A stretch of 64,000 bases of DNA from Deltaproteobacteria bacterium (GCA_020444075.1 JAHLLR010000001.1:47782-111781), one strand, 5' to 3'. Shown: positions 1 through 42,902, counted from the first letter of the stretch. A program made the numbers and translations. The notes: generated by a model not told the origin, from the letters alone.

Positions 1-3
1 ACC

Positions 4-687
4 ATGGGATCAACAGAATCAGAGGAGAACTTCATGGACAGCCCCATCCACAATTACTGGCAACTTCGGCTTCAAAAAATAAAGAAGGCGCTGGAATCCA
101 ACAATTTCGATGTCTACATCGCCGACAATAAGGACCTGGCAAAAAAAATGGCCTACGACACGATTATCCCGGCCATTGCCCCGAAAACCATCTCCTGGGG
201 AGGATCAATGACCTTTGTCGGCACACGGCTTTACGAAACGCTGAGAAATGATCCTCGCTACGCGGTGCTGGACACTTACGACAAAAGCCTCTCACCGGAA
301 CAGAGCATGCAGCGTCGACGGGAATCGCTCCTGGTGGATCTGTTCATCACCGGCACCAATGCCGTCACCGAAAACGGCCAGCTGGTCAACCTGGACATGA
401 TCGGCAATCGGGTGGCAGCCCTGACCTTCGGCCCCAAACAGGTGCTCCTCTTCATCGGCCGGAACAAGATCGTGCCGGATCGTGAAGCCGCCATCGCCCG
501 AATTAAAAACTACGCGGCACCGGTGAACGTCATGCGGCTGGACAAAAAAAGTCCCTGCGGCAAAACCGGCCGCTGTGAAAACTGCAGCAGCCCGGACCGC
601 ATCTGCAACACCTGGACAATCACGGAAAAGAGTTTCCCCAAACACCGGGTGAAGATCGTTCTGATCAACGAAGACATGGGATTCTGA
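4..687 (+). CDS. LUD-domain (LutC/YkgG-like, lactate utilization family) protein with C-terminal Cys cluster
   Basis: 227-aa ORF; WGGSMT, FITGTNAVTENGQLVNLDMIGNRVAA and CGKTGRCENCSSPDRICN match LUD-family motifs; start could be 34. Confidence 0.8.
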   Translation: MGSTESEENFMDSPIHNYWQLRLQKIKKALESNNFDVYIADNKDLAKKMAYDTIIPAIAPKTISWGGSMTFVGTRLYETLRNDPRYAVLDTYDKSLSPEQSMQRRRESLLVDLFITGTNAVTENGQLVNLDMIGNRVAALTFGPKQVLLFIGRNKIVPDREAAIARIKNYAAPVNVMRLDKKSPCGKTGRCENCSSPDRICNTWTITEKSFPKHRVKIVLINEDMGF

Positions 688-699
688 GGAGCAATAGCC

Positions 700-993
700 A
701 TGACCATTGAAGCAACTACCTGGCTCTATGTGGCCATTCAGAAAAACGGACCCGGCGAACAGATCGTCGGGCAGACCGACAGCGAACACGATATCTCTTT
801 CATCCCGGCCTTTTTGAATAAGGAATCCGCACAACAGGCCATGTTTCATCTGCACCTGGAAAAAAAGAAGAAGTACGAAGTGCAGGCCATCATCTACGAA
901 GACCTTGCCCGCCACGCCGTCGAAAACGGATTTCTCGTTTTTGTTCTGGATGATGAGGGAAAGGTGTTGGAGCGTCTTCCGGCTACCCCGTAA
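700..993 (+). CDS. hypothetical protein
   Basis: 97-aa ORF with GAGGAG RBS, 12 nt after the previous stop; protein-like composition. Confidence 0.75.
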   Translation: MTIEATTWLYVAIQKNGPGEQIVGQTDSEHDISFIPAFLNKESAQQAMFHLHLEKKKKYEVQAIIYEDLARHAVENGFLVFVLDDEGKVLERLPATP

Positions 994-1072
994 AATTGGC
1001 TTTTATTTTTTTTATCCGCCGCCGCTGCCTTGCAGACGGTCGGCCCCAGGTGGATCGGAACCCGATGGGATC

Positions 1073-1912
1073 TCAACCGATCGGGTTGACCAGATGCCGT
1101 ATAAACGCTGAGATGGATGTCCGCACAGCCTCGGCCTTTTCCAGATGAGGCGCGTGACCACAGTCGGGAATCACCTCAACGGCCACCGCCCCCCCGGCTT
1201 TTTTCCGGATGACATCAATCTGGTCCTGTGATCCGTATGGATCCTTTTCCCCCTGAATGGCCAATACCGGCACATGAATGGCCGGTAGGAAGGCATCGAT
1301 CGTCCACTGCCTGAAATCCGGATCAAGCCACACATCGTTCCAGCCCCAGAAAGCACAGTCGGTATTTTCCCGGTGGTAGGGGGACAGGCGCGCTTTAAGA
1401 CCCCCGTTGAGGTAGCGGTCGCGTGCAGCTTCAATGGATCGCCGGGTGAGGTCTTCGCAAAAAACATGGGCGGCCAGGGTGACAACCCCCTTCAGGCCCG
1501 AACAGGGACTGCCGCCGGCATTAATCAGGGCGATGGAGCCGCCGTCGGAATGGCCGATAAGAAGGTGATCGCGAATGCCGGTTTGCCGAATAACCTCGGG
1601 CAGCACCACCAATCCCTCGTGGTGCATGAAATCAACCTCTCGCGGCAAAGGGCAGGGGGCGGACCCCCCGTATCCCAGGCGGCTGTAAACCAATGCCCCG
1701 CAACCGGTGATTTCGGCCAGCCGGGCCGGGAAATCCCGCCACAGGTCCACGCATCCCAGCCCTTCGTGAAGGAATACCAGGGTGGGCGCTTGATCCGGTC
1801 TGGGACCGATCCATGCGGCCTCCAGCCGGCCCCCGTCAACGATCAATGGAATGTCAGACCGGATCTGACGGGTTATTTCTGAACCCACTTGCCGCCTGTA
1901 TCCTGGAGCCAC
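1073..1912 (-). CDS. alpha/beta hydrolase
   Basis: LVFLHEGLG oxyanion loop, GHSDGG nucleophile elbow, QGEKDPYG acid, CGHAPH His; true start uncertain (probably downstream of 1912). Confidence 0.9.
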   Translation of the reverse strand: MAPGYRRQVGSEITRQIRSDIPLIVDGGRLEAAWIGPRPDQAPTLVFLHEGLGCVDLWRDFPARLAEITGCGALVYSRLGYGGSAPCPLPREVDFMHHEGLVVLPEVIRQTGIRDHLLIGHSDGGSIALINAGGSPCSGLKGVVTLAAHVFCEDLTRRSIEAARDRYLNGGLKARLSPYHRENTDCAFWGWNDVWLDPDFRQWTIDAFLPAIHVPVLAIQGEKDPYGSQDQIDVIRKKAGGAVAVEVIPDCGHAPHLEKAEAVRTSISAFIRHLVNPIG

Positions 1913-2244
1913 TCCCCGGGCTTGGCATTGTCGGCAATTTGAAGCGCCCGACGCCGACCAACCACGTCGGCGGTCGTTCCCTGCTGCTTGGCGATGGCGC
2001 CGTATACCAGCTGCCGGTCCTGGTTTTCCGCGTCCACCAGCGCCTGTTCCGACTTGTTGCCGCCGATGAAGGCAAGAAACCCCTGATTGTTCTCCCCGAT
2101 AATGCCGGCAGCCTTGAGTGCAATAATCCTCGGCAGCCGGTCTTTCATCCGCGCCTTAATATCACCGCAAAATGCGGACGATGAAAAAAGAAACACACCG
2201 GCGGCAACCGCTGCCATAAACCATAAATATCGTTTCTGGTTCAT
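1873..2244 (-). CDS. ydbL: YdbL (DUF1318) family exported protein
   Basis: Signal peptide, then IGENNQGFL...LVDAENQDR...Y..IA...GEWLQ pattern; follows ynbE/ydbH. Confidence 0.85.
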   Translation of the reverse strand: MNQKRYLWFMAAVAAGVFLFSSSAFCGDIKARMKDRLPRIIALKAAGIIGENNQGFLAFIGGNKSEQALVDAENQDRQLVYGAIAKQQGTTADVVGRRRALQIADNAKPGEWLQDTGGKWVQK

Positions 2245-2290
2245 TTCAATAGTCCTTTCATTGCCAACAAAATACCCTTTATCTCCGGTC

Positions 2291-2503
2291 TCATTCGGTT
2301 TTTTTGATCTCTTTGGCGGTTTCGTCGATATCGCCGAAGAAATCGTCCAGGGCCCGATCCACTTTGACGTTGACATCAATGGTGATGTGGATGGGTTTGA
2401 TTTCCACCGGCTTTACCTCCACCTCGTGGTGGGTAAAGCAGGATGAAAGCCCCCACAAAGCCCAGGCGATTGCGGCCGCCAGTAGCAGCCTCTTTCTTAG
2501 CAT
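2291..2503 (-). CDS. ynbE: YnbE-like lipoprotein
   Basis: Lipobox LSSC; KPIHITIDVNVKVDRALDDFF; lies between ydbH and ydbL. Confidence 0.85.
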   Translation of the reverse strand: MLRKRLLLAAAIAWALWGLSSCFTHHEVEVKPVEIKPIHITIDVNVKVDRALDDFFGDIDETAKEIKKTE

Positions 2504-2518
2504 AACAGGTCTCCTTTG

Positions 2519-5290
2519 CTACTGATTCATGTTGACGATGTCCTTATACTGCAAAAGCTGGTTCAGGGGAAGTCTCAGGTTAACGTCCAGACCGATGCCC
2601 TGGAAAACCGAGCCCTGCGCGCCGGCCTCGACGCGAATGAAGCCGCCGATCTCTTTTTTATAAATAAACGGCAAGGGGTTGGCCGGCTTGCCGTCGAACT
2701 GGAGGCGCATGACAAAATCTTCCCCCTCGGACACCAACCCAAGCTTGGCCCAGGTATAGGCGTAGTCCTTCAACGCCGCCTGGGCCAGTTCCACCTGGGC
2801 AAACTGGGGGGTTCCCGCCGGGATTCCCCGGGTGAGGATGTCGGTGCCGGTCAGCTGAATCTGTCCGGTTTCCCCGGGGGTGGAAAAAAGAAACCCGTCA
2901 TCGAAGCGAATGCGGCCGTTGGTGTATGCAATGGGAATCCTGCCGTTTACCGTGCCGCTTCCCCTGGCGTTCACCGCACCCAGCTGTTCGAGGATACGGG
3001 ACAAGCCCAAACGCTGGCAGTAAAGGCTCACCTGGTAGTCCTGCCGGCCGGCGGCAATCCGCAGAGACTGGGCATCCACCTTGCCGCCGCACCAGTTCAG
3101 ACGGCCTTTCTCGATAAACAGGGTGTTGTCCGATTCCACCTGGACATCGAATGACCCTCCATCCACCACGATGCCGCCCATGGCAGCCCGGGAGAACTCA
3201 ATATGCTGGGCGGGTCCGCTGCGAATGCGGGGCAGTTCTGGAAAACGCAGGGTCGCGTCGATGCCCGTCACGGTTATTTTCTTTTCCGCCATCTCCAGTT
3301 CGCCGCTTTTCATTGAGACATTGAGATCGCCCTTGAAGCCACTGAAAGAGACCGATGCGTTTCCATTCGCCGAAACCGTCCCGGAGAGGGTCACGCCTTT
3401 CATCGCCGGGACAAAACGCCCCACATCGCTTCCAGCCGGCAGTTCATAGGATGGAACCTCAAAGGTGACGTCTGCATTCTCGAAGCGGAGCCCGCGGGTG
3501 AGCACCTTTCCCGTAAGCGCGGCGGTCATTCCGGGAAACAGGTCGCTTTCATGGGCAGCGGCAAACGCATAGGCATTTTTTTTCTGAGCAATCCGGCCCT
3601 GGATTTTGCCCAGGAAATGCTTTCGGTAATCGATCCGCGCAATGGAGAAGGTGCCATCACTGACCGTGGCCTTAAGGTCCGAACGGAAGGGAAGGTCCAG
3701 ACGCCCGCCCGACAGGCGCAGGCCGCTGTTTTGATCCTGGAACTGGCCGTTAGCGAAGCGCAGCCGGGCATCGACAGCCGGCGTACCGCCTCCTTGCTGG
3801 TGAAACCGGGCGGACAGGGTCAAGGCATCGAGTTTAGCGGCCATACCCTTGCCATCGACCGTCGGATTGGGAATCCGTATCCGGACGTCGCCAATCCAGG
3901 CCGGGCCATGGGGTTCTTGCTTGAACTGCAACTGCCCTGTTGCGTCCGCCGATGGCAGGTTGACGATTGCCCCGGCGGCGGTTGCCCGGAGCGCATTCAG
4001 TCCCAGCTGCCAGTCGGCGGTCCCATTTTGCCCGTCACCCGTTGCCGTCAGACTGAAGCGGGGTGAAGCGCCATGAATGCGCGTGCCGGCAATGGTGATA
4101 TCCATCGGATCCAATCGGGAGGACGGGTTGTTTTCGCTCCTGCGGAATCCGGCGGACCATTCGCCTGTAGCCTTTTGGGTGACATCGAAGGTCGCCGGCA
4201 CAGGCACGCCGGATTTCATGGTGACCGGCAACGGGGATTCAACGGAGATGGGCAAAACCGTCATATCGACATTGCCGGTCACGCCCCGAATGTCTCCACC
4301 AAGATTCAAGGTGGCCGTCATCCGGTTGATGATCAGGGGTACCGGTGCCTGAAGCCGCAGCCCCCCGGCATTAACCTGCCAGGTTGCGAGGTTCTCGGCA
4401 ACGGCGGACAGGCTGGCCGCCGCCTCATCCCCTCCCGGTTCAATGTTAACTGGCCCATACGCCAGCCGGCCGCTGCGCCAGGTCAGGTCCACATTCGCGC
4501 CCAGGATGGCAAAGGGGGTCAATGTCACCCTGGCGTTTGTCTGAACGGTCACGTCACCGGTGGCATCCAGTCCGGGAAGAAGATGAATCAGGTCGGCGAA
4601 CCGGTCCAGGTCGACAGCTTTGGCGTCAAGGCCCACCTTTACTTTCCGGTTCTCGACATCCACCTGCGCGGCAATCGCCAGGAGTTGGTCGCGGGGGAAC
4701 AGGCGTATATGGGCATCCAGGTTCATCATACCCCGCCCATCCGGTCTAATATCTGCCTCGAAGGGGATTTTTTGGGTCGCATGGCGCCAGGTCAGGTTGA
4801 CCATGCCGCTGCGGATTTCGATCTTCTCCACCGACAAGCCCGCGAGTGATGACGATGTGCCTGAAGGTGCTTTGTCCTCAAGTTTATTACGCTCCCATAC
4901 GCCTGGATCCAAACCCGGAAAGACCATACCATCAGGGCCCAGGGTCGCGTTCACCGTCAGCCCGCTGATGCGGAGGCTGCGAATTTTCTTTTGACGTACT
5001 TCCCCCGGTGAATAGTCAAGCACGATGGAATCAATTGAAAGGGCCGGTTGGTCGGCATGGCCGAAAACAAACGGCCCCGCCGCCGTCTGGTGCAGACCGA
5101 TCCTGGAGATCCGTCCCGTGAAATCCGCAAATCCCAAGCGCTGGATCTGCGCCACGGGAAGCCGGTCAGTGACCAGCGCCGGCAGGACCAGATAGCCCGC
5201 CAAAAGCAGGCACGTCGCCAGGGCGGCCGCCGTCACCAGAACCGGAACAACGGTCGGCCAATTCCATTTGCGTGGTGAGAGTTCGTTCAT
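2519..5290 (-). CDS. ydbH: YdbH family AsmA-like intermembrane lipid-transfer protein
   Basis: 923 aa, N-terminal TM anchor, beta-rich body, C-terminal GSGTVNGRIPI / ALKDYAY / LDVNLRLPLNQLL; synteny with ynbE-ydbL. Confidence 0.85.
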   Translation of the reverse strand: MNELSPRKWNWPTVVPVLVTAAALATCLLLAGYLVLPALVTDRLPVAQIQRLGFADFTGRISRIGLHQTAAGPFVFGHADQPALSIDSIVLDYSPGEVRQKKIRSLRISGLTVNATLGPDGMVFPGLDPGVWERNKLEDKAPSGTSSSLAGLSVEKIEIRSGMVNLTWRHATQKIPFEADIRPDGRGMMNLDAHIRLFPRDQLLAIAAQVDVENRKVKVGLDAKAVDLDRFADLIHLLPGLDATGDVTVQTNARVTLTPFAILGANVDLTWRSGRLAYGPVNIEPGGDEAAASLSAVAENLATWQVNAGGLRLQAPVPLIINRMTATLNLGGDIRGVTGNVDMTVLPISVESPLPVTMKSGVPVPATFDVTQKATGEWSAGFRRSENNPSSRLDPMDITIAGTRIHGASPRFSLTATGDGQNGTADWQLGLNALRATAAGAIVNLPSADATGQLQFKQEPHGPAWIGDVRIRIPNPTVDGKGMAAKLDALTLSARFHQQGGGTPAVDARLRFANGQFQDQNSGLRLSGGRLDLPFRSDLKATVSDGTFSIARIDYRKHFLGKIQGRIAQKKNAYAFAAAHESDLFPGMTAALTGKVLTRGLRFENADVTFEVPSYELPAGSDVGRFVPAMKGVTLSGTVSANGNASVSFSGFKGDLNVSMKSGELEMAEKKITVTGIDATLRFPELPRIRSGPAQHIEFSRAAMGGIVVDGGSFDVQVESDNTLFIEKGRLNWCGGKVDAQSLRIAAGRQDYQVSLYCQRLGLSRILEQLGAVNARGSGTVNGRIPIAYTNGRIRFDDGFLFSTPGETGQIQLTGTDILTRGIPAGTPQFAQVELAQAALKDYAYTWAKLGLVSEGEDFVMRLQFDGKPANPLPFIYKKEIGGFIRVEAGAQGSVFQGIGLDVNLRLPLNQLLQYKDIVNMNQ

Positions 5291-5530
5291 TTAACAGTCG
5301 ATGCTCTGGGCGAAGAGCAGTTCCCTCGCCCGTTCATGCCCCAGGCCGTCCGCCTGCCTGAAGCAGCCAGCGGCCCCGGCGGTGTTTCCGGTTTTGTTGC
5401 GGGTTTCAATCCCTGTTACACGGATAGGACTGGAAAATTCTAATCCTAAATGATATTGAACAGATATATATGTGTCAACAAAAAGGCCGTAAATCCAAAA
5501 GACAAGGTGGATTCTTTTTCGTGTGAGAAG

Positions 5531-6220
5531 ATGATCGCATGCCATGACATCACATTTCGATATCCGGGTGCAGAAATCCCGCTTTTTAATGGCCTTGAGG
5601 TAACCATTGACAAACCGGGCTTTCACGCCCTGTTCGGGCCGTCCGGCGTCGGTAAAACCACCCTTGCCAGAATTCTTTCCGGCGACATCGACACCTTCTC
5701 AGGGCGTGTGCAGGCCCTGGCCGATATGCCCTGCCTGTATACGCACAACCGGGAGCGGCTCCCCGGCTGGAGTCCGGTGGGCCGGCACCTGGAAAAAACC
5801 ACCCCCCCGGGCCGCCAACAGCTCAGAGACGAACTGATTGACCATTTCGGCCTCTCAACCCTCATGGGCATGCGCTTTTCCCAGCTCTCCATGGGGCAGT
5901 GCAACCGTGTAAACCTGCTGCGATATCTGCTTCAGGATTTCGGCATCCTCATCATGGACGAAAGCCTGGCCAATGTGGATGAACCTACCCGGCACGCCAT
6001 ACTTTACACGATCAAATCGACCTTCCCGGAGTCCGGTTTTCTCTACATTTCCCACAACGTGGTGGAGGTGTCCCGGTTCTGCGACCAGATCGTCGTCTTT
6101 CGCGGGGCGCACCTATCCCCCCAGACCCGCCTCGTCCGCGGGCAGGACCACCGTGAAGACCGGCCCCTGGATAAAACGGCGATGGAACGGTCCATGCTGG
6201 AGATCATGAATGCTGCATAG
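5531..6220 (+). CDS. NitT/TauT-type ABC transporter ATP-binding subunit
   Basis: Walker A GPSGVGKT, signature LSMGQ, Walker B ILIMDE, H-switch ISH. Confidence 0.9.
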   Translation: MIACHDITFRYPGAEIPLFNGLEVTIDKPGFHALFGPSGVGKTTLARILSGDIDTFSGRVQALADMPCLYTHNRERLPGWSPVGRHLEKTTPPGRQQLRDELIDHFGLSTLMGMRFSQLSMGQCNRVNLLRYLLQDFGILIMDESLANVDEPTRHAILYTIKSTFPESGFLYISHNVVEVSRFCDQIVVFRGAHLSPQTRLVRGQDHREDRPLDKTAMERSMLEIMNAA

Positions 6221-6959
6221 ACGAATTTTCCAGTTTCTCATCGTCTACCTGTTGGGCATCGGCCTGCTGTTCGGGATCAAGATCGTCCTGAACCTTTCCG
6301 ATTACGTGATCCCGGGGCCCGCAGGCGTCTGGCAGACGGGTCAGGCGGAGTTTTCCCGTTATGTGGGAGATGTGCTGGATACTTTTGCCGTGGCCGTCAT
6401 CGGCCAGGTTCTGTCCATTCTGATGGCCCTGGGCGTCGGCGTGGCCGGTCGCCGGGCCACCTGGCTCGGTTCCTTCATCAAAGTGGCCGCATATAATGTT
6501 CAGGCGTATCCCATCGTGGCCATCGCGCCGATTCTGTTCATCCTGCTGGGAGATGGGTTCCTGACCCGGCTGTTCATCGCCGCCATGATCTGCTATTTTC
6601 CGCTGCTGTTGTCGGTTATCGGCATCATGAGCGAACCGGTGACGGATATTGAACATTTCTATCGGGTAACGGGACGGCTGCGATGGCAGCTCGAAGTTAA
6701 AATCCGGGCTTTCGAGAACCTGCACAAGCTGACCACCGTAATTTCGGGCAGCGCCACCCTGGCCATGGCCGGTACCATCGTGGCCGAATTCATCGCCGCC
6801 AACGCCGGCATCGGTTACAGCATCCGCATCGCCCTTTACCAGAGCGATCTGGCCAAAATTCTGGTGGCCCTGTTTATCATCGGCATTACCCTCTCCCTGT
6901 ACCAGGGAATTTTGGAACTGCTGGGGGCCGGTTTGAAAAAGGTCTGGGCGGCCGGTTAG
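6210..6959 (+). CDS. ABC transporter permease (NitT/TauT family)
   Basis: Multiple hydrophobic segments, IPGPAGVW, IVAEFIAANAGIGY; overlaps the ATPase stop. Confidence 0.9.
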   Translation: MLHRRIFQFLIVYLLGIGLLFGIKIVLNLSDYVIPGPAGVWQTGQAEFSRYVGDVLDTFAVAVIGQVLSILMALGVGVAGRRATWLGSFIKVAAYNVQAYPIVAIAPILFILLGDGFLTRLFIAAMICYFPLLLSVIGIMSEPVTDIEHFYRVTGRLRWQLEVKIRAFENLHKLTTVISGSATLAMAGTIVAEFIAANAGIGYSIRIALYQSDLAKILVALFIIGITLSLYQGILELLGAGLKKVWAAG

Positions 6960-6985
6960 CGTCTTCACTGACAGGAGGTCGAATC

Positions 6986-7990
6986 ATGAAACCAGGCATG
7001 ACAATTCACCGGCTGGCCGCTGTGCTCCTGCTGCTGATCGTCGGCAATGGCCTGACGGCGGCCGACCCGGTTCTGGCTCAGGAAAAGGTTGTCTACCGCC
7101 TGAAATGGCTGATCAATGCCAGCACCGCGGGAGACGTATTTGCGCTGGATCAGGGTTTTTTTTCAAGGGAGGGACTGGCGGTCGCGGTCAAGGCGGGGGG
7201 CCCGGAGCGGGATGCCCTGCGGGAACTGGAACTGGGGTATGCCCAGTTCGGCGTGGCCTCGGCGGACCAGGTGATCCGGGCCCTGGCCAAAGGGGCGTCG
7301 GTGATCGTGCTGGCCCAGTTGTTTCAGGTCAACCCCCTCCAGTGGATCTATCGGGCAGACGATTTCTCCCTGACCCGAACCCAGGACCTGGAGGGGCGCA
7401 CGGTAGGCATCACCTATGGCGGCAACGATGAAACCATCATGCGGGCCCTGCTCGCCTCCGCCGGCATGAATGAAAATCAGGTCCGCCTGGCCAGCGTCCG
7501 ATACGACTACACACCATTTTTTGAAAACCAGGTTCCGGTTTGGCCGGTTTATCGCAACACCCAGGGAATCTTTTTATCGGATAAGCTTGCCGCCGGGGGA
7601 GAACGGGTGGCGTTCTTCGATCCGTCTGAACACGGCGTACGATTCGTAGCCAACAGCGTCGTTACCTCACAAAAAATGATGGATCTACATCCGGAAACGG
7701 TGGGGCGATTCACCCGGGCGCTGCTGGCCGGATGGCAGGCAGCCATGTCCCCGGCCCGCGAAACCGCGGTTATCCAGGCAGTGGCCCAATACGATCGTGA
7801 CACATCGGAATCGGTCATGCGCCGCCAGTTGACCGTCACCCGTCAGATGATCCAACCCGACCCCGGTATCCCCGTCGGCCATATCGATGCCACGGCATGG
7901 CAGCAGACCGAGCAGATCATGATTCAGCAGCGGTTGATTCCCGGTCCGGTGAACGTCGTCGACCGTCTCAAAACCCAGCAGTCTCCCTGA
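6986..7990 (+). CDS. ABC substrate-binding protein, NMT1/THI5/SsuA-like
   Basis: Signal peptide; RLKWL...GFFSREGLAV...GG...QFGV...DLEGRTVG pattern; GGAGG RBS. Confidence 0.85.
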   Translation: MKPGMTIHRLAAVLLLLIVGNGLTAADPVLAQEKVVYRLKWLINASTAGDVFALDQGFFSREGLAVAVKAGGPERDALRELELGYAQFGVASADQVIRALAKGASVIVLAQLFQVNPLQWIYRADDFSLTRTQDLEGRTVGITYGGNDETIMRALLASAGMNENQVRLASVRYDYTPFFENQVPVWPVYRNTQGIFLSDKLAAGGERVAFFDPSEHGVRFVANSVVTSQKMMDLHPETVGRFTRALLAGWQAAMSPARETAVIQAVAQYDRDTSESVMRRQLTVTRQMIQPDPGIPVGHIDATAWQQTEQIMIQQRLIPGPVNVVDRLKTQQSP

Positions 7991-8064
7991 TCGAATCCAA
8001 CCGGCTGTCACTTGCAGGTTGACCGCCAGGCGCATGGTCCATTAGCGAAGTAATGGATGGGGCG

Positions 8065-8796
8065 TTATTCCGGATAGCTGGCCCTGACCTTTTCGTGCAG
8101 GGCCTGAGACCGCATCCACAAAAACCCGGTGTCCGTGTCATAGTCGTAGGAAAGCAGACGGTCGGAGCCCTTTCCCGTCCAGCGGACCCTTTCTGCATGG
8201 TCTCCTTCCTGCCTGCCTTCGCCGAAACGCCGCAAGGCTTCGGCCTTCAGGTCCATGAAATCCAGATAATTGCTGGTCTCTACAAGAATAGTGTAGAGCC
8301 TCCCCTGCCAGAACCCGTAGAAGACATTGTCCACACTCGCTCGACCGAAGCGCTTTTTCCGCTGTTTGTTGATGTACTGCTGCACCCCCCCGTAGGCCGA
8401 ATCAGTTCCCACGAGTGTCAGACCTTCAAACTGCGACAACGGCTGGCCCCATTTCAGGTCAAGGAACCCGGTGTCGTTATCTGCCGGCAATGGCGGCGGG
8501 AGTGAGTGGCCGGCGGCAGGTGCGTCGGAGGTGGGTGGCGGATCGGTGGCCGGTTCCTGCCCGGAGGGCGGATGGGCTTCAACCGAGGCCGGTGATTGAA
8601 TCAGCCGTTCCACCTCTTTTTCATCGACACGGACCACCTGACCATTTTTATAATAGTTGACGACACCGTTTTCCTTCCAGGCCTTTCGGGTCTCAAACAT
8701 CTCTCCCGACTTGAGGATCACCATATCAGCCCCAACCGAGCCAACGCCCGTTAGCAGGATGATCGCAATAAGAAGGGTCAAAAAAAGTTTAAGCAT
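8065..8796 (-). CDS. exported hypothetical protein with Pro-rich linker
   Basis: 243-aa ORF, clear signal peptide (VGSVGA-D), DTGFLDLKWG second domain. Confidence 0.8.
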   Translation of the reverse strand: MLKLFLTLLIAIILLTGVGSVGADMVILKSGEMFETRKAWKENGVVNYYKNGQVVRVDEKEVERLIQSPASVEAHPPSGQEPATDPPPTSDAPAAGHSLPPPLPADNDTGFLDLKWGQPLSQFEGLTLVGTDSAYGGVQQYINKQRKKRFGRASVDNVFYGFWQGRLYTILVETSNYLDFMDLKAEALRRFGEGRQEGDHAERVRWTGKGSDRLLSYDYDTDTGFLWMRSQALHEKVRASYPE

Positions 8797-8991
8797 ACGA
8801 ATTCATTTCGATTATAGGTTCTTGCGCTGTCTTCAATGATAAAAAGGGATATCGAAAAGTACACCGGTGTCCGGTCATGTCCTAATCTATCCGCCTATAT
8901 TCGCCAAGTCAATTCTCCAGGAAAAAGCTTTGAATTTCTCACGCTGATGGCCTACCCTATGGCCCTGATGGATCGGACCAAGGAGGAGCCC

Positions 8992-9399
8992 TTGACGGAC
9001 ATACATGAAAACAGCGGGCATCGGCCCGAACCGCCACGCATGTGGGTGTATACGCTCCCCGGCGGCCACCGGGTGATGGCAGGGAAAACCGATGCGGACA
9101 ACGACCGCCTCAGCCTGAAAGTCGCCGGTCCCAACGACTGGTGGTTCCACGTGCGGGGCATGCCCGGAAGTCATGTGGTCCTGGTGGCTGCCGACGGCCA
9201 GGTGCCGGACCGGAGCACCCTGAACCAGGCCGCCGCCATTGCAGCCTACCACAGTAAAGCCAGGGGTGGCGGAGTTGTGGCGGTTTCCGGAACCCTGGCC
9301 CGCCATGTCACCAAACCCCGTGGCGCCAAGCCCGGAACCGTGCAGATTCGCAAAGAACGGATTTTTAAAGTTCGGCCGGCGCTGCCCGCATCTTCTTAA
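8992..9399 (+). CDS. NFACT-R (DUF814) RNA-binding domain protein
   Basis: AGKTDADNDRL, DWWFHVRGMPGSHV, AAAIAAYHSKAR, KPRGAKPG; AGGAGG RBS before TTG at 8992. Confidence 0.9.
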   Translation: MTDIHENSGHRPEPPRMWVYTLPGGHRVMAGKTDADNDRLSLKVAGPNDWWFHVRGMPGSHVVLVAADGQVPDRSTLNQAAAIAAYHSKARGGGVVAVSGTLARHVTKPRGAKPGTVQIRKERIFKVRPALPASS

Positions 9400-9459
9400 C
9401 AACCCTGACCCGCGGGATAATTTATTTTCCGGCGCCCGTTAACATTTTAAACTCAGAAG

Positions 9460-10008
9460 GTGACCCAGATGCTGTATCAATTCGACGGTAAGCAACCCCA
9501 GGTGGGAACCGGGACCTATGTGAGTGAACTGGCCCACGTCATCGGAGATGTCATCATTGGCGACCAATGCTATATCGGCCATGGCGCCATTGTCCGCGGC
9601 GACTACGGACGCATTGTCATCGGTGATGGAACCGCTGTAGAGGAGGGTGTCATTATCCATGCGCCGCCCGGCGACACCCAGTCCATTGGTCGGCGGGTAA
9701 CCCTGGGACACGGTGCCATTCTCCACGGTCGATCCATCGGCAACCTGGCCGTCATCGGCATGGGTGCGGTGGTCAGCATTTTCAGCCAGGTGGGTGAGCG
9801 CAGTATCGTGGCGGAGGGCAGCGTAGTCAAACTCAACCAGAAAATCCCTGACAAGGTGGTGGCGGCGGGAAACCCCGCCCAGGTCGTGCGGGCGGTTACC
9901 GATCAGGACGAAGAGCTGTGGGCATTCGGCAAGCAGCTCTACATCGACCTCGCGGCTAAATACCTCGGGCAGGGATTGATTCCGGTGGCCTGCTCACCAG
10001 AGGCATGA
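9460..10008 (+). CDS. gamma carbonic anhydrase family (hexapeptide repeat) protein
   Basis: IIGDVIIG, VRGD, IIH, TLGHGAILHG, GNPAQVVR motifs. Confidence 0.9.
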   Translation: MTQMLYQFDGKQPQVGTGTYVSELAHVIGDVIIGDQCYIGHGAIVRGDYGRIVIGDGTAVEEGVIIHAPPGDTQSIGRRVTLGHGAILHGRSIGNLAVIGMGAVVSIFSQVGERSIVAEGSVVKLNQKIPDKVVAAGNPAQVVRAVTDQDEELWAFGKQLYIDLAAKYLGQGLIPVACSPEA

Positions 10009-10047
10009 ATCCGAAAATGACCGGCTGATGGCAAGTTCACCTTTTTT

Positions 10048-10332
10048 TTACTGAATCCACGGCCGGGACAGACGCCGGCCGTGATTGCCGATGAAGACCA
10101 GGTTTCTGCAGCGGCCGCACAGGCCGGAAAGATTGCGACGAAGAACAACTTGACCAAAGGGATGAATAGATCTTAACCCGTTGGTATTGATATATACCTG
10201 TTCGACCTCCGGCCCGTAGGATTTCAGGGTGTTGACCAGTTCATGGGCCGAGCTGCCGTCGAAATCTCCATCAAGGGTGAGGTGGACACTATTTTTGCTT
10301 TTAAGCTGGAAAATCTTGAAATTCATGGCCAT
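10048..10332 (-). CDS. STAS-like (anti-sigma antagonist fold) small protein
   Basis: VHLTLDGDFDGSSA...INTNGLRSIHPFG; GGGAGG RBS before ATG at 10332. Confidence 0.75.
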   Translation of the reverse strand: MAMNFKIFQLKSKNSVHLTLDGDFDGSSAHELVNTLKSYGPEVEQVYINTNGLRSIHPFGQVVLRRNLSGLCGRCRNLVFIGNHGRRLSRPWIQ

Positions 10333-10544
10333 CGGTTGCCTCCCTTTCCACCGCCGGACGGCGGTACCATCCGTTTGCCAGAAAAAGATTTCAGTAATGG
10401 ACGCCAGGCGCGTCACCCCGGAAGTGTTGAAGCGGCGGGAAGCTAAACGCAGGCAATTCCATCTCAGATCCGCAACCATCGACAGAACAATTTCCACAGG
10501 CACACCCAATCATATTCAGGATGCCGCTTCATGCGGGACATCTC

Positions 10545-38042: not shown

Positions 38043-38086
38043 TGGTGATCCCACCGGGATTCGAACCCGGGTTACCGGCGTGAGAG
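38043..38086 (-). repeat. 44-bp att core: duplicate of the tRNA-Glu 3' end
   Basis: TGGTGATCCCACCGGGATTCGAACCCGGGTTACCGGCGTGAGAG, identical to 41604-41647. Confidence 0.97.
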
Positions 38087-38138
38087 CGACCCCACACCAC
38101 CTCGATATTCATTATTTCAGATAGTTAAGAGATGCACT

Positions 38139-38189
38139 GGACACAAATTATGCATTATTTGCACGAGGATTTGTGTCCGTTTTGTGTCC
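38139..38189. repeat. arm-type repeats (GGACACAA family) inside the att core
   Basis: GGACACAAAT (38139-48), inverted ATTTGTGTCC (38169-78) and TTTTGTGTCC (38180-89). Confidence 0.65.
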
Positions 38190-38360
38190 TCACATGAATC
38201 CTAAATTAACCACTATTAGCTCATCTGTAATGAAAGCAACAAAGGCTTGGAGATAAAGGGGTACGTCCGCTTCGTCAAAGCTGAATCAGTCAAGAACCTT
38301 CTAACAATATTTTAAATAGTTGGTACGCCACTTAGAAACGTAAGTGAAATTTTCCGACAT
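38190..38360 (-). pseudogene. decayed ORF downstream of the islet gene
   Basis: AAGGA RBS + ATG; MSENFTYVSKWRTNYLKYC*KVLD*FSFDEADVPLYLQAFVAFITDELIVVNLGFM*. Confidence 0.4.
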
Positions 38361-38392
38361 ATATCCTTTTTACCCGACAAACATTAGTATGT

Positions 38393-40807
38393 TTATACCT
38401 GATCGCAAGATATCGTCTCTTCAGTTTTATATGCTGGAGCAATACCCTGATCAGGTTCAATTTCTTCTGATGGAACAAATCGACGGCGTGGATAGTTCTC
38501 CCAATAGTCGCTGAATTCGCTCTTAGCAACAATTCTGAAACGTAAAGTGCTATTGGGTTGAAATAGAAAATCTGTAGGCGCAACCAAACAAGGCTCCCCA
38601 AGCGACTGTCCCTTGTGTGTCATAACAATGGGAGGATCCCACAAAGAGATGACTGAGCCGCGGTAGTCCTCCAAGGTATAACGGATGTTACCGTGACTGT
38701 CTCCTTCAATTTCATTGCCCCAAAATAACTTTGGAATTAAACGCTTTGTATCTGCGATTTCAACTGCTTGATGGATTCGCGATAAACAGGCAAGCATCCT
38801 GTCAGTTTCAGGGAATTTATCATCCTCACGTTTGTGGTCAATTCCATTTCTAATATTCGAAAGATCTGCTTGAGCAAGTTGTTTTGATATGCTCTCAATT
38901 GTCTCGGTATAACCAACAAGGATTTCTGATGGTACGTCTGCCCACAATTGTGTATGGAGGTATGGGAAGACCCATACTTTATCATCAGCATAATGCGGGA
39001 AATCTTCTTTCTTTCGTTCTAATTGTGTTTTGTCCACCTCATGTCTATTTTTTAACCACGCACGAAAACAATGTAAATAAGCCATCAAAGTCCCCAATGT
39101 ATTGGATCCTTCTATTGACCATGCGAAAGTTTCTTCCCCTGAATTGACCTCCGCACCCAAAGCCAGGACTACAGAATTATGGGCATCTCTGCGATTATAT
39201 TTAAAATGGGTTCCTGTGAAATGATCGGCAGATAGCATCCAAACATTATAACAGATCAAGTCTTCCAAAAAACTTTCCATTGATACAAACAAATTTACAC
39301 CAACACCTCTAACTTTAGCCTTGTCACCTTCGCCCAGTTTAGACCCAAGTGTTAGCAAGCAGGCCTGAAACTCTTGCAATCGATTATGTAAAATTTCATA
39401 ATTTTCCTCGTATCTGGAGAGATTGAATCCTAATTTCCATAAAAGTCTACGAATTGTCTTTCGTTCGTCTTCACCCGGGAATATCTGGAAATTGTATTCT
39501 TCTGCAATAGCGGTAATCACTGATCTCGAAGGCAATATTAGATCTTTGACAGTCTTCTCCGGCCCATGCGTCCGAATAAATTCAAATATGGAATGTTTTA
39601 AGCCAGACAAATCCGTCTTCCTTAAACGCCATGAAAGATCATCATTTTGGCCAAGCGATTCGTAAGTGGACCATATTGTAGACGCGAGTTCAATAACCGC
39701 TGGATAAATACATGAACGGATACCAAGCGAGGAAAGGCTGGATTTTAATTTAAGGTCTGGGCCATAAACATATGTAATTCTGGTTCGCAACTCTGCAGGG
39801 GGTATTAAAATTACTTTATTCGCTACCAATTCATCGATAAAATAGATAAGATCCCGGTCGGGAAGCAATAAAAGTGCTTGGTGTTGAGCTTCAGGTGAAA
39901 GATAATTTACCAAATCCAATTGTGGAATATCGTTTCCATATTTTTCTCTCAGTGTTTTGTTTAAGAATTCGAAATATTTTGATTTTAAAGCTCGTTTGAG
40001 TAAATTTTGTCTTTCGGGGCCGATAATACAATCCCCGATAATTGTTGGGAGATCATGGTAAGGTCTTCCATGCTGCCACTTACCAGTTCTGTGAATAAGC
40101 AAAAGAGGTTTCTCCCATTCTGATTCTGGACCAAAATGATCTCTAATCTCTCTATTAAATCTTTCGAAATAATTTTGGTACTCAGACTTGTGTTTACACA
40201 ATTTAACCAAATGACGCGCAAGACAACCTGGATCGGAGCAATGCCACAGGACTACATCAAGGTCAGGTGAGAGGAGGCGGTCTTCCTTTCCGATAAGAAT
40301 GCCTAAAGGTCCAGACACAAATGGACCAACTTGAAAGACTCCTTGTGGCATTCCATCTAATAGGAATTCTGCCTCATCAGGATTCAAATGGTCTGTTTCT
40401 GTAGCCTCAGGCCAATCATTATATTTATGATATAATTTGTTACCATATGCGTATGGCCATCTCAGGTGCCCATCCCTTTCCATTTGGTTTAATAGTTCAA
40501 GAATACCTGATAGGTCACTTTCTATATAATTGACCAATAAATCGGTGTGGTAAAAAAGTTTGAATAACGTAAATGCTTCATATGCGCTGTCGTTAACAAT
40601 GCCTTTATTTCTTACATGTTGTAGATATTGTTCTCCTGTTTCGCTTATTTTCACACATTCATTCCAATCAGTGCTTGGTTGAAAATTCGCACTGAGGAAT
40701 CCCTCTGCGCAAAATAATGATAGCCCGAAAAGCCTAAAAAGCTTCTCTTTATATTCCATACCCTTTAATTTTTTATTCACTTCAGATGAAGATAGCCATT
40801 TTCCCAT
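38393..40807 (-). CDS. large islet protein with putative HEPN RNase motif (candidate defence effector)
   Basis: AAGGAG RBS 7 nt before ATG 40807 (the track starts at GTG 40810, 805 aa); NLFVSMESFLEDL and RNGIDH (38834-38851); HCSDPGCLARH. Confidence 0.85.
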   Translation of the reverse strand: MGKWLSSSEVNKKLKGMEYKEKLFRLFGLSLFCAEGFLSANFQPSTDWNECVKISETGEQYLQHVRNKGIVNDSAYEAFTLFKLFYHTDLLVNYIESDLSGILELLNQMERDGHLRWPYAYGNKLYHKYNDWPEATETDHLNPDEAEFLLDGMPQGVFQVGPFVSGPLGILIGKEDRLLSPDLDVVLWHCSDPGCLARHLVKLCKHKSEYQNYFERFNREIRDHFGPESEWEKPLLLIHRTGKWQHGRPYHDLPTIIGDCIIGPERQNLLKRALKSKYFEFLNKTLREKYGNDIPQLDLVNYLSPEAQHQALLLLPDRDLIYFIDELVANKVILIPPAELRTRITYVYGPDLKLKSSLSSLGIRSCIYPAVIELASTIWSTYESLGQNDDLSWRLRKTDLSGLKHSIFEFIRTHGPEKTVKDLILPSRSVITAIAEEYNFQIFPGEDERKTIRRLLWKLGFNLSRYEENYEILHNRLQEFQACLLTLGSKLGEGDKAKVRGVGVNLFVSMESFLEDLICYNVWMLSADHFTGTHFKYNRRDAHNSVVLALGAEVNSGEETFAWSIEGSNTLGTLMAYLHCFRAWLKNRHEVDKTQLERKKEDFPHYADDKVWVFPYLHTQLWADVPSEILVGYTETIESISKQLAQADLSNIRNGIDHKREDDKFPETDRMLACLSRIHQAVEIADTKRLIPKLFWGNEIEGDSHGNIRYTLEDYRGSVISLWDPPIVMTHKGQSLGEPCLVAPTDFLFQPNSTLRFRIVAKSEFSDYWENYPRRRFVPSEEIEPDQGIAPAYKTEETISCDQV

Positions 40808-40896
40808 CACATATCTCCTTAGACCGAAATAGCAATTTAAAGATTATTGGGTTGGATGTTCTTTGTTACGTCCAGAAGCTTAAATGGATTGTTACA

Positions 40897-41040
40897 TCAA
40901 TTGTGATCAATAGCTATGTTTATATTTTTGAGACTGGACTCAAGTGATTTAACACACTCATTTTTCAATTTCAAATAGGTTCCATTTTATTTCAAAAGTG
41001 ACTCATAGGAACCGTCATATAAATATAACATATTGAAAAA
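40897..41040 (-). pseudogene. possible remnant of an ABC-exporter ATPase C-terminus
   Basis: YFFNMLYLYDGSYESLLK*NGTYLKL resembles the G(S/T)xxELLxxxGxYxxL tail. Confidence 0.35.
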
Positions 41041-41112
41041 ATATCACATAATCAATCCAGATTGAAATATACGCTTAGTGAACGTATAAATTGATCAAAT
41101 TATACTTGACAT

Positions 41113-41137
41113 GGGGTAATTCGGGGGTAATTCGGGG
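41113..41137 (+). repeat. 11-bp tandem repeat
   Basis: GGGGTAATTCG x2 followed by GGG. Confidence 0.7.
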
Positions 41138-41225
41138 ACGGTGATGAAAATATGCGTTTCTAATTCTTCCCCATAAGATTCCTTTTCAATTTGTTTTCTC
41201 GATGAACGAAACGCATTAAATCATC

Positions 41226-41274
41226 CCCGCAATCCGTCCAGCATTCCACCCGCAATCCACGTCCAGCAATCCCA
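41226..41274 (+). repeat. imperfect tandem duplication with four GCA(A/T)TCC units
   Basis: CCCGCAATCCGTCCAGCATTCCA / CCCGCAATCCACGTCCAGCAATCCCA. Confidence 0.65.
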
Positions 41275-41472
41275 TTTGGCTTAATGCACCGTCATCAGGC
41301 AATGAAACAAAAAAGATACTGGACAGCAATAACAACGTAAACGGCCTGTCAAAGGGTTCAGTAAGCATATTGCTAATTAGCTGGATCAATCCTGTCGCCA
41401 TTTTGAAAACCAAAATTTACCTGTTTTGGCCTCTAAACTCCAAAATAGGCATTTTTCACTCAAAACATTGCT

Positions 41473-41544
41473 GGTGGGGTAGAAATTGGAAGAAACGTTA
41501 AATCACCAATATTCGGGCTGTAGGTGGGAAATGCGGTGGGAAAT
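41473..41544 (+). repeat. arm-type repeats (GGTGGG family) next to the tRNA
   Basis: GGTGGGAAAT at 41523 and 41535 (12-bp period), GGTGGGGTAG at 41473. Confidence 0.6.
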
Positions 41545-41554
41545 TTAGAGACAC

Positions 41555-41603
41555 CAAAAAATCAGGGGGCCGGTATTTCTACCTAACCCCCTGGAATTTT
41601 TTT
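41555..41603 (-). terminator. terminator-like hairpin downstream of tRNA-Glu
   Basis: CAGGGGG-N17-CCCCCTG flanked by A- and T-tracts. Confidence 0.6.
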
Positions 41604-41678
41604 TGGTGATCCCACCGGGATTCGAACCCGGGTTACCGGCGTGAGAGGCCGACGTCCTAACCACTAGACGATGGGACC
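41604..41678 (-). tRNA. tRNA-Glu(CTC)
   Basis: GGTCCCATCGTCTAGTGGTTAGGACGTCGGCCTCTCACGCCGGTAACCCGGGTTCGAATCCCGGTGGGATCACCA; cloverleaf, anticodon loop CTCTCAC, T-loop TTCGAAT, encoded CCA. Confidence 0.97.
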
Positions 41679-41696
41679 GTATAAAAAACAGAGGCT

Positions 41697-41725
41697 TCAA
41701 TATAGAAAAGACGTATCTTTGTCAA
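41697..41725 (-). promoter_or_regulatory. probable sigma70 promoter of tRNA-Glu
   Basis: Perfect TTGACA followed by TATATTGA at 15-17 bp; -10 assignment uncertain. Confidence 0.45.
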
Positions 41726-41777
41726 ACAGTATTTGCCCCCGGGAAAGCCTTGAATGGCTTGAACAGGGACTATCGTT

Positions 41778-41996
41778 TCAATCGTCCGGTCCGTCGGCCG
41801 CAGACCGTTTGCCCCTTCTGAACCCGAACAGGAAATAAACCACCACGCCGACGAACGGAACCAGGGCAACGACGAAGGCCCACAGGGCCTTGAATTGGAT
41901 GCCACCGAAGTCTTTGCGGGCGATATCCAGAAGCGCCACGCAGGTCAGGAGGAAAAACGCAACCCCGGTAACCACAATGATCATGCCGGTGCTCAT
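41778..41996 (-). CDS. PLDc N-terminal domain small membrane protein
   Basis: ALLDIARKDF...KALW..VVALVPFVGVVVYFLFG. Confidence 0.85.
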   Translation of the reverse strand: MSTGMIIVVTGVAFFLLTCVALLDIARKDFGGIQFKALWAFVVALVPFVGVVVYFLFGFRRGKRSAADGPDD

Positions 41997-42002
41997 GATG
42001 GA

Positions 42003-42902
42003 TCAGCCTTTCAATTTATCCGCAATATCGAGGATGGTGTCCACGTAATACTTGCTGTGGTTGTAATGGTAGACCACCTTGAAGGCCTGCTCCCGGGCGA
42101 GCCCCGGTTTCCATCCATAATGTTTCAGGTAGCTGGCGATGCTGGAGATGGCGTCGGCATGGACAAACAGGTCCACCTGGCCGTCGGCGTTGCCGTCTTG
42201 GCCATAGAGGGCGATATTGCTGGGCATGAACTGGGAGATCCCCATGGCGCCGGCGTATGATCCCTTGATGACGGTGGGATCCATGCCCTCTTTTTCGGTG
42301 TAGGTTAAAAAGGCCTTAAGTTCACCGTAGGCCCAGTTCGCCTTCTGGTCCGCTTTTTTTTCAAATTCTTTGCGGGACATTCTTCTGTCGTCATCGGGCA
42401 GGTTATCCCAGATCATCTGGCGTGGCTTTTCGTCGGTCATGGCGGACAAGGTGGCCAGGGTGTTGATCACCGATTTGTTGCCCACATAGGTGCCCAGCTT
42501 GGTCTCCACCAGAATGATGGCGGTGATTACCTCCTTGTCGACCTCGAAGGTCTTCTCCGCATATGCCAGGGCCTCCTTATGGGTCTTCATGTATATTTTT
42601 GCCGATTCGATATTCCATATGCGGGTAAACTGCTTGTAGTTCAGCTTGGCCTCGTTGTGCATGAAATAGGCGCTGACACCCCTCTCTTCGAAGGAGACAT
42701 CGGGACTGGCAAAAAGAGTCTTGATGTGGGCGCTGTCAAAGCCGTCTGCAATCAGTCGTTTTTCGAGAGCGTCAAAGGGCTTCGAAGGCTCGGCGACGCA
42801 CGCAGGAGCAAACCATCCCGCCAGCAGCAGGGCCAGGATGGTCATGCCATACCGCTTGAACCGTCCGGTTAGAGGTGTTGGGATATTGTCGAGCATGCGC
42901 AT
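42003..42902 (-). CDS. lytic murein transglycosylase (MltB/SLT_2 family)
   Basis: AIILVETKLG, GSYAGAMGISQFMPS, DGNADGQVDL, SIASYL, YNHS..YV. Confidence 0.92.
   Translation of the reverse strand: MRMLDNIPTPLTGRFKRYGMTILALLLAGWFAPACVAEPSKPFDALEKRLIADGFDSAHIKTLFASPDVSFEERGVSAYFMHNEAKLNYKQFTRIWNIESAKIYMKTHKEALAYAEKTFEVDKEVITAIILVETKLGTYVGNKSVINTLATLSAMTDEKPRQMIWDNLPDDDRRMSRKEFEKKADQKANWAYGELKAFLTYTEKEGMDPTVIKGSYAGAMGISQFMPSNIALYGQDGNADGQVDLFVHADAISSIASYLKHYGWKPGLAREQAFKVVYHYNHSKYYVDTILDIADKLKG

Follow-up and report, generated by a model that had tools for sequence, protein, structure and literature searches.

A recombinase-free tRNA-Glu islet carrying a single gene of an undescribed protein family, a candidate single-protein conflict system

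Introduction

A mobile element that retains attL and attR but lacks integration genes is, by definition, a cis-mobilizable element (CIME) (PMC6323972). We analysed a stretch of 64,000 nt from a deltaproteobacterium (Deltaproteobacteria bacterium, GCA_020444075.1 JAHLLR010000001.1:47782-111781; the whole stretch is called the window, and positions are counted from its first nucleotide), in which the 3.6-kb segment 38043-41647 is a horizontally acquired, recombinase-free islet that entered a tRNA-Glu(CUC) gene by recombination inside its 3' end. The islet carries one gene, whose 804-amino-acid (aa) product, P0001, belongs to a real and undescribed protein family with conserved length and motifs, and for which a role as a single-protein conflict enzyme is proposed here.

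HEPN RNases (AbiD/F, AbiJ, ApeA, HepT, Cas13/Csm6, RnlA and the Ire1/RNase L KEN domain) are the described proteins closest to this proposal. Their signature is an R-N-x3-H motif together with a conserved acidic residue carried by a long helix further towards the N terminus, as in Ire1/RNase L, Cas13 and RnlA; HEPN domains are small helical bundles, and the relationship between one family and another is often missed by Foldseek and by hidden Markov models (HMMs). RloC and PrrC, large stand-alone defence proteins of the ribotoxin type, are both counteracted by RNA repair of the Pnkp type; RloC also contains a zinc-binding element. Defence genes also have preferred sites in prophages and in integrative and conjugative elements (ICEs): the int-cI interval of phage K139 contains orf2 and glo, the latter annotated as involved in phage exclusion, and the hotspots of P2 and P4 prophages carry defence cargo (PMC9122126).

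Results and discussion

The islet at the tRNA-Glu gene

An earlier reading made from the DNA sequence only, with no database search, had described the segment as an integrase-less tRNA-Glu islet with perfect 44-bp attachment (att) repeats, and this description was borne out by ARAGORN, Rfam, an exact-repeat search and the failure to find an integrase. The tRNA-Glu gene was the sole tRNA called by ARAGORN in the window; its last 44 nt, CCA included, form the attL-type repeat, and a displaced copy forms the attR-type repeat at the distal end of the islet (Table 1). The repeat was matched in none of 100 shuffles, and the similarity ran about 10 nt beyond the exact repeat (54 nt at 96%). The GC content was low, as the same reading had stated, at 0.33-0.43 between the repeats versus 0.52-0.65 in the flanks. 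Neither an integrase nor excisionase or transfer genes were found inside the islet, where the only open reading frame (ORF) longer than 89 aa was the 804-aa gene, and three queries of limited sensitivity found no integrase in the window.

The islet fits a CIME because attL and attR are retained and the integration genes are absent, with direct repeats from the 3' part of a tRNA gene bounding a block of foreign composition. It shares with CIMEs and other tRNA-integrated islets the intact tRNA-3'-end repeats, the foreign composition and the lack of integration and transfer genes, and differs from them in being only 3.5 kb long with a single gene; it also differs from CIMEs in that the window yielded no cognate element with an integrase and that excision was not observed. 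The sequence-only reading had further called every neighbour of the gene decayed, which did not hold: the two arms of the islet are unmatched non-coding DNA, and the genes outside the repeats (amidase, PLDc_N protein, MltB-like, PHP and RadA) look intact.

The gene and its protein family

The long ORF of the islet (38393-40810, minus strand) encodes 805 aa when read from GTG, in agreement with the intact ORF of about 805 aa with a strong ribosome-binding site reported from the sequence, although the start codon is probably the ATG at 40807, which follows AAGGAG and gives 804 aa. The protein database entry P0001 is this same 804-aa product, and residues are numbered accordingly, one lower than in the earlier reading.

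Fifty-six homologues of P0001 were collected at 25-55% identity, nearly all of them 785-830 aa long and all unnamed. An HMMER scan of 1.84 billion representatives yielded at least 757 clusters (at 50% identity) with E ≤ 1e-3, 407 of them with E ≤ 1e-30; most of the matches listed align over nearly their whole length, the shorter entries aligning to parts, and 145 of the 198 collected family proteins measured 760-860 aa. P0088 (1071 aa) seemed to be a fusion, a candidate that was rejected because its extension resembles low-complexity read-through and not a domain. When one genome was taken for each of 185,579 species, 29 loci were found. Those from bacteria belonged to Planctomycetota, Acidobacteriota, Armatimonadota, Verrucomicrobiota, Chloroflexota, Bacteroidota, Actinomycetota, Desulfobacterota, Omnitrophota, Parcubacteria and a Massilia (at least 10 bacterial phyla overall), and those from archaea to Methanosarcinales, Methanobacteriaceae and Bathyarchaeia, indicating that the family is rare, patchy and cross-domain.

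The motifs that had been quoted from the sequence were all present in P0001: RNGIDH at residues 653-658, HCSDPGCLARH at 189-199 and the helix at 505-517, located as N505-LFVSMESFLEDL. Among 50 aligned full-length members the invariant residues included H189, C190, C195, E511 (50/50), W523, D528, H529, F614, P615, R653, N654 and H658 (the last three each 50/50), while H199 (49/50), N505 (49/50), H618, D624 and R660 were conserved in at least 90%; F507 was kept in 49/50. Residues 462-692 hold most of the invariant polar residues of the family, and the R/N/H residues, together with the glutamate of the upstream helix, were invariant in homologues down to 23% identity. The R/H pair on which the earlier reading had built its proposal is thus conserved in the homologues: RN...H was kept in 151 of 152 full-length members versus 136 of 152 for HCx4Cx3H, which makes the R-N-x3-H centre the most strictly conserved feature. 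The H-C-C-H cluster noted in the same reading was therefore conserved in most of the family and lost in about 10% of it, and the putative zinc knuckle appears to be usual but dispensable.

Predicted structure and comparison with HEPN RNases

AlphaFold2 run with the family alignment gave a confident model of the whole protein (predicted local distance difference test, pLDDT, 89.4; predicted template-modelling score, pTM, 0.88), and residues 462-692 modelled alone (231 aa) reached a pLDDT of 91.3. From the N terminus, the model has a helical region, a small beta unit with the H-C-C-H cluster, two helical regions, the C-terminal helical domain, a C-terminal beta domain and a disordered tail. Strands at 184-189 and 198-203 flank the cluster. 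In the model of the C-terminal helical domain, a very long helix (493-526) carries R500, N505, E511 and W523 and is followed by D528-H529, a beta-hairpin insert and the conserved loop FPxxHTxLWAD, and RNGIDH lies on a short helix (649-657).

Like HEPN RNases, the family has a strictly conserved R-N-x3-H (RNxxxH, of the Rx4-6H type) within a domain made of alpha helices, and an acidic residue is conserved on a long helix that precedes it; its genes stand alone on DNA of mobile or defence type, and one locus provides a link to RNA-repair genes. It differs from them in having no profile or structural match to any HEPN family, in the large size of the domain (about 230 aa) with its inserted beta-hairpin and long conserved loop, in the additional invariant D-H, H and D residues, in an N-terminal region of about 460 aa and a C-terminal beta domain that have no counterparts there, and in the lack of an MNT, CARF, reverse transcriptase or ATPase partner. 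With RloC and PrrC, P0001 would have in common the design of a large stand-alone protein and, with RloC, a putative zinc-binding element; unlike them it has no P-loop or ABC ATPase (no Walker A, no AAA match in Pfam) and its candidate catalytic motif is another one. Since neither a profile nor a fold match was obtained, the term HEPN-like as used here refers solely to the motif and its context, and membership of the family in HEPN is unconfirmed; the known difficulty of linking HEPN families to one another by sequence or Foldseek keeps HEPN a reasonable lead.

Homologues on mobile DNA

Members of the family travel as accessory cargo among distantly related bacteria and archaea, as indicated by a series of mobility signatures. 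The gene had a lower GC content than its flanks at about 24 of 27 genome loci, by up to 19 points, and at 29 of 32 metagenome loci, the difference exceeding 3 points in 23 of the 32. As the sequence-only reading had supposed for P0001, the homologues are stand-alone: no conserved partner gene was found and the neighbours differ at every locus. In Streptomyces canus the homologue is cargo of an actinomycete ICE (AICE) with integrase, RepSA, SpdB and FtsK. In locus L120 (1-13805) it lies in a K139-like Vibrio prophage with a CI repressor, GpA and an integrase 65% identical to K139 Int, where an 8.5-kb block of cargo on the opposite strand is placed between int and the CI repressor gene; a protein of DUF4145, which we take to be a HEPN-clan family, adjoins the homologue. 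This block occupies the interval of orf2 and glo in K139, so that phages of this group seem to have a variable defence slot here. Members of the family thus share with the known prophage and ICE hotspots (P2/P4, the glo slot of K139) a place in the int-cI interval in one case and a place as AICE cargo in another, whereas the copy in the window lies outside any prophage or ICE. Integrases were also found a few kb from the homologue in two further loci (L018 and L119).

At two loci the homologue stands directly downstream of one tRNA gene, with another beyond it: tRNA-Pro and tRNA-Arg in L023 (9592-9669 and 12679-12752), and tRNA-His and tRNA-Leu in L020 (7473-7547 and 11407-11488). Repeats of the att type were not found around either homologue; in L023 the 3' end of tRNA-Arg recurs in part 166 nt beyond, suggesting another islet there. 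Two contigs of one Methanobacteriaceae metagenome-assembled genome (L024 and L034), each with a family member, are identical over the 500 nt downstream of it and carry the same housekeeping genes (SepSecS-like, PHP, GAPDH) on that side. Their upstream sequences are only 83% identical, and they are probably strain variants of one locus and not two copies.

In six unrelated genomes a lone homologue is bracketed by direct repeats that copy the 3' end of the upstream gene, its terminator hairpin or both, with stem-loops in the repeats of all six loci (Table 1), which mirrors the duplication of the tRNA 3' end in the window. In L005 a stop codon closes both repeat copies, at an identical position. 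The repeats of L096 exist in two copies only and match the attC core consensus poorly, which speaks to some degree against a reading of that locus as an integron cassette. Overall, about 10-12 of 66 family loci were repeat-bracketed compared with 3 of 42 other large ORFs from the same loci, which is not significantly above the control. Such bracketing could come from repeated decay of integrase-type islands, or from RecA-mediated reinsertion of excised circles.

Defence and RNA-repair neighbourhoods

Defence-type neighbourhoods were recurrent among the homologues but not universal. A fused PARIS AriAB (E 4e-154) was found directly upstream of the homologue in L010, an AAA_15/21 and DUF4276 pair directly downstream of it in L005, with an Mrr-type nuclease nearby, and a HEPN_Toprim_N protein directly upstream of it in L122, within a low-GC block. 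Among 142 ORFs flanking some 40 metagenome and viral loci, strong matches to defence models included type IIG restriction-modification, PD-T4-2 A and B, DpdF, SoFic, BrxL, PsyrT, PD-T7-4, UzuA and NsnA, and Pfam matches included Cas1, PIN, Eco57I, DUF3800 and DDE transposases. The defence association of homologues, which the reading from the sequence had named as a check, was seen for a sizeable minority, found beside known defence genes or in cargo slots of mobile elements, and many loci have housekeeping neighbours only; the family as mobile conflict-system cargo has moderate support.

In L082 (940-10685), a same-strand, tightly spaced cluster reads Hen1-Pnkp-[homologue]-RlaP-RlaP-like-PD-(D/E)XK. 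The homologue starts 37 nt after Pnkp, has all its motifs intact and has a GC content of 0.39 versus 0.40-0.45 for the operon. The RNA-repair enzymes Pnkp/Hen1 and RlaP are thought to counter ribotoxins (bioRxiv 10.64898/2025.12.29.696909), and the arrangement fits an RNA-cleaving activity of the family.

Proposed function and alternative explanations

The explanation we prefer, with a probability of about 0.4, is an integrase-less islet with a single-protein conflict enzyme, most plausibly a HEPN-like RNase. According to it, the islet integrated by recombination within the tRNA-Glu(CUC) 3' end and now has no recombinase of its own, and P0001 would act as a single-protein conflict enzyme of the anti-phage or abortive-infection type. 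The catalytic centre would lie in the C-terminal helical domain (about residues 462-692) and would comprise E511, D528-H529 and R653-N654-x3-H658, with a chemistry that is most plausibly metal-independent and that of a HEPN-like RNase. The N-terminal 460 or so residues, including the HCx4Cx3H knuckle, would hold the enzyme inactive until a trigger appears; this autoinhibition of the C-terminal RNase is something that we purely infer. A defence role as a stand-alone sensor-effector is the best-supported function and has slightly better than an even chance of being right. RNase activity of the HEPN kind is the best single guess at the chemistry of the centre, and a tentative one.

Several results weigh against this explanation, most of them on its HEPN part, for which no match was obtained by Pfam, PDB profile search, Foldseek or hhalign although the sequence-only reading had expected a HEPN fold. 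P0001 alone had no match in Pfam, NCBIfam or PDB sequences, and Pfam searches with 50 full-length and 34 domain-only sequences gave no HEPN family at E ≤ 10. Foldseek gave nothing at E ≤ 1e-3 for the whole model against PDB and BFVD or for the domain model (462-692) against PDB, and the only HEPN-containing entries in the list of the domain model were Roquin ROQ/HEPN constructs at noise level (E 0.4-0.8, probability about 0.1). An hhalign comparison of the domain alignment with a DUF4145 alignment reached a probability of 1.7%, a weak negative given the low diversity of the template. The additional invariant D-H and the near-invariant H618 and D624 could fit a metal site, which makes another chemistry possible. 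On the side of mobility and context, no joint from excision or skipping was found among the contigs of four metagenome runs (contigs drop rare variants), and no homologue was present in 72,556 PLSDB plasmids or in 50,697 sequenced phage records. The PADLOC matches of the neighbours are raw counts, and single-HMM matches are promiscuous; the window, L001, L003, L006 and L038 are among many loci where the gene is solitary amid housekeeping genes; and the RNA-repair association was seen at one locus of about 120. Further searches were empty or nearly so: PADLOC-DB 2.0 gave 0 families at E ≤ 1, the PDB profile searches with the family were empty, a HEPN_Toprim_N protein and a DUF4145 protein compared with the domain alignment by hhalign gave no match, and a search of 5.8 billion proteins with the domain alignment returned three fragments only. 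The absence of any match in Pfam, NCBIfam, PADLOC and PDB agrees with the earlier statement that the architecture could not be matched to a named system.

One alternative is a conflict or defence protein whose catalytic domain has a new fold and another chemistry, its RNxxxH resembling that of HEPN by convergence or coincidence; it could be, for example, a nuclease or phosphodiesterase that depends on metal, or an enzyme that degrades nucleotides, working through E511, D528-H529, H618 and D624. It is supported by confident models that have no neighbour among PDB or BFVD structures, by the lack of profile similarity to HEPN families and by several extra invariant or nearly invariant Asp, His and Glu residues in the same domain, and the defence and mobile contexts apply to it equally. 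We nevertheless consider it unlikely, in view of an N right after the R and an H five residues on from the R in 151 of 152 members, which is the exact HEPN signature, of the homologue within an RNA-repair operon (L082), and of the frequency with which HEPN bundles escape such searches. That operon, where the cluster is tightly spaced on one strand and the homologue has a GC content near that of its neighbours, would also suit an accessory factor of RNA metabolism, repair or stress that processes or marks damaged RNA together with Pnkp/Hen1/RlaP-type systems and is not an immune effector. Such a role is improbable: it has a single locus of about 120 on its side, elsewhere the gene is solitary or among defence and mobile genes, and a sparse, patchy distribution with low GC is unlike that of a housekeeping helper.

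The repeat-bracketed loci raise another alternative, in which P0001 would be its own mobilising enzyme, a new recombinase or nuclease, and the islet a complete single-gene mobile element. Its insertion site would directly follow the 3' terminus of a gene or hairpin (tRNA acceptor and T-arm, or stop codon and terminator), 40-180 nt of target would be duplicated, and the zinc knuckle and the E/DH/RNxxxH centre would act on DNA or structured nucleic acid and not as an immune RNase. This would explain the islet and at least six unrelated loci with a repeat-bracketed lone member, but bracketing was not significantly more frequent than in the control ORFs, the elements have no shared conserved ends, no genome has several copies, near-identical copies at different sites were not found, the downstream flank is common to the two Methanobacteriaceae contigs, and the gene is also carried by ordinary elements with an integrase of their own. 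No tyrosine or serine recombinase, DDE or HUH enzyme was matched in Pfam, PDB or Foldseek, and Foldseek would normally detect recombinase or transposase folds. Self-mobilisation appears quite improbable. Least credible of all is a functionless remnant of a decayed genomic island, with the ORF open by chance; the islet does lack other genes and an integrase, but an unbroken frame of 804 codons with a canonical ribosome-binding site, full-length homologues with invariant residues across phyla and a confident predicted fold all argue against it.

If the preferred reading of a defence role is true, the family would be a new single-protein immune system common to bacteria and archaea and invisible to current defence annotation, and its catalytic domain would turn out to be either a very divergent HEPN branch or a new catalytic fold, the predicted architecture being confident and yet structurally unmatched. 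The system is small (2.4 kb, with no partner gene) and directly testable, with R-N-x3-H as a mutational handle. Its repeat-bounded, recombinase-free packaging, here and in other genomes, raises the question of how single defence genes travel.

Table 1. Features of the islet and of P0001 in the window, and repeats that bracket homologues at other loci.
Feature	Sequence	Position	Strand	Basis or description
tRNA-Glu, anticodon CTC/CUC, integration target	window	41604-41678	-	ARAGORN; Rfam RF00005, 64 bits, E 1e-12
attL-type repeat, 3' 44 nt of tRNA-Glu including CCA	window	41604-41647		exact direct repeat
attR-type repeat, displaced tRNA-Glu 3' copy at distal islet end	window	38043-38086		exact direct repeat
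Low-GC islet between repeats, 3517 nt	window	38087-41603		GC versus flanks
Sole gene, 804-aa P0001 of an uncharacterised family of about 800 aa	window	38393-40807	-	ORF, homologues, AlphaFold2 model
Shine-Dalgarno AAGGAG, 7 nt upstream of ATG 40807	window	40815-40820	-	sequence read
H189-C190-x4-C195-x3-H199 (HCSDPGCLARH), putative zinc knuckle between two beta strands	window	40211-40243	-	conservation, model
Residues 462-692, mainly helical C-terminal domain, candidate catalytic	window	38732-39424	-	domain model, invariant residues
Helix segment N505-L517 (NLFVSMESFLEDL) with invariant E511	window	39257-39295	-	conservation
R653-N-G-I-D-H658, Rx4H (RNxxxH) motif	window	38834-38851	-	conservation
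Possible promoter, two tandem 11-nt repeats (CGAATTACCCC, gene strand) and TATAAT	window	41099-41137	-	tandem-repeat search, sequence read
Imperfect 25-nt tandem repeat, tRNA-proximal arm	window	41226-41272		TRF, 2.0 copies, 87%
Direct repeats	L013	9546-9720, 12544-12719		176 nt, rpoC 3' end and terminator copy, 96%
Direct repeats	L005	9679-9723, 12559-12603		45 nt, 3' end of nitrite/sulfite-reductase gene, 91%
Direct repeats	L001	9779-9830, 12528-12578		52 nt with hairpin, 88%
Direct repeats	L022	9730-9771, 12556-12596		42 nt, terminator, 83%
Direct repeats	L007	9826-9895, 12439-12523		85 nt, 78%
Direct repeats	L096	1143-1316, 3679-3830		structured intergenic region of 150-175 nt on either side of an almost bare ORF

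The islet arms

The arms of 793 nt (40808-41603, of which 40811-41603 was searched) and 306 nt (38087-38392) had ORFs of at most 65 aa, and neither blastn nor tblastx matched them to any of about 120 related loci or elsewhere in the window; the arms are non-coding and not demonstrable pseudogenes. A conserved upstream element and decayed genes were both rejected as contents of the arms for the same lack of matches. Rfam matched nothing but the tRNA, and the 793-nt arm had no terminator-like site. A type III toxin-antitoxin or RNA partner was rejected: a type III antitoxin would be a tandem array of repeats of about 30-50 nt with a terminator, upstream of the toxin gene, and the only tandem repeats in the arm are an 11-nt one (2.3 copies) and a 25-nt one (2 copies).

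The 11-nt tandem repeat (41113-41137) ends 8 nt upstream of a perfect TATAAT (41104-41099), which has no -35 match and thus was not listed by a sigma-70 scan. It lies about 290 nt before the start codon and would leave a leader of that length; together, the repeats and the TATAAT possibly form an activator-dependent promoter. Four GATTGC(G/T)GG-like motifs were seen at 41224-41272, within the imperfect 25-nt tandem repeat, and a 22-nt inverted repeat (41139-41160/41208-41229) adjoins it; these repeats of the tRNA-proximal arm could be putative leftover arm-type sites or regulator binding sites.

The locus in metagenomes

In contigs of the four metagenome runs, all from freshwater sediment, the depth of the islet was about that of its flanks. 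A Logan contig of 28,990 nt (L037; region 1-10345 compared with window 41604-42122) matches the window at 100% identity over 519 nt (tRNA-Glu and 440 nt of the right flank); its depth is about 31x, that of the window strain about 5x. Beyond this part follow unrelated housekeeping genes not present in the window, among them rubrerythrin, multihaem cytochrome and thiSGHF. The contig either represents a commoner relative with another arrangement at tRNA-Glu or is a chimera assembled at the very deep tRNA, and its use as an empty site was set aside for the latter possibility. In all four runs a large share of the tRNA-Glu coverage (300-600x) had an extra A after position 41658, in reads from other members of the community that share the tRNA-Glu and not from the window strain.

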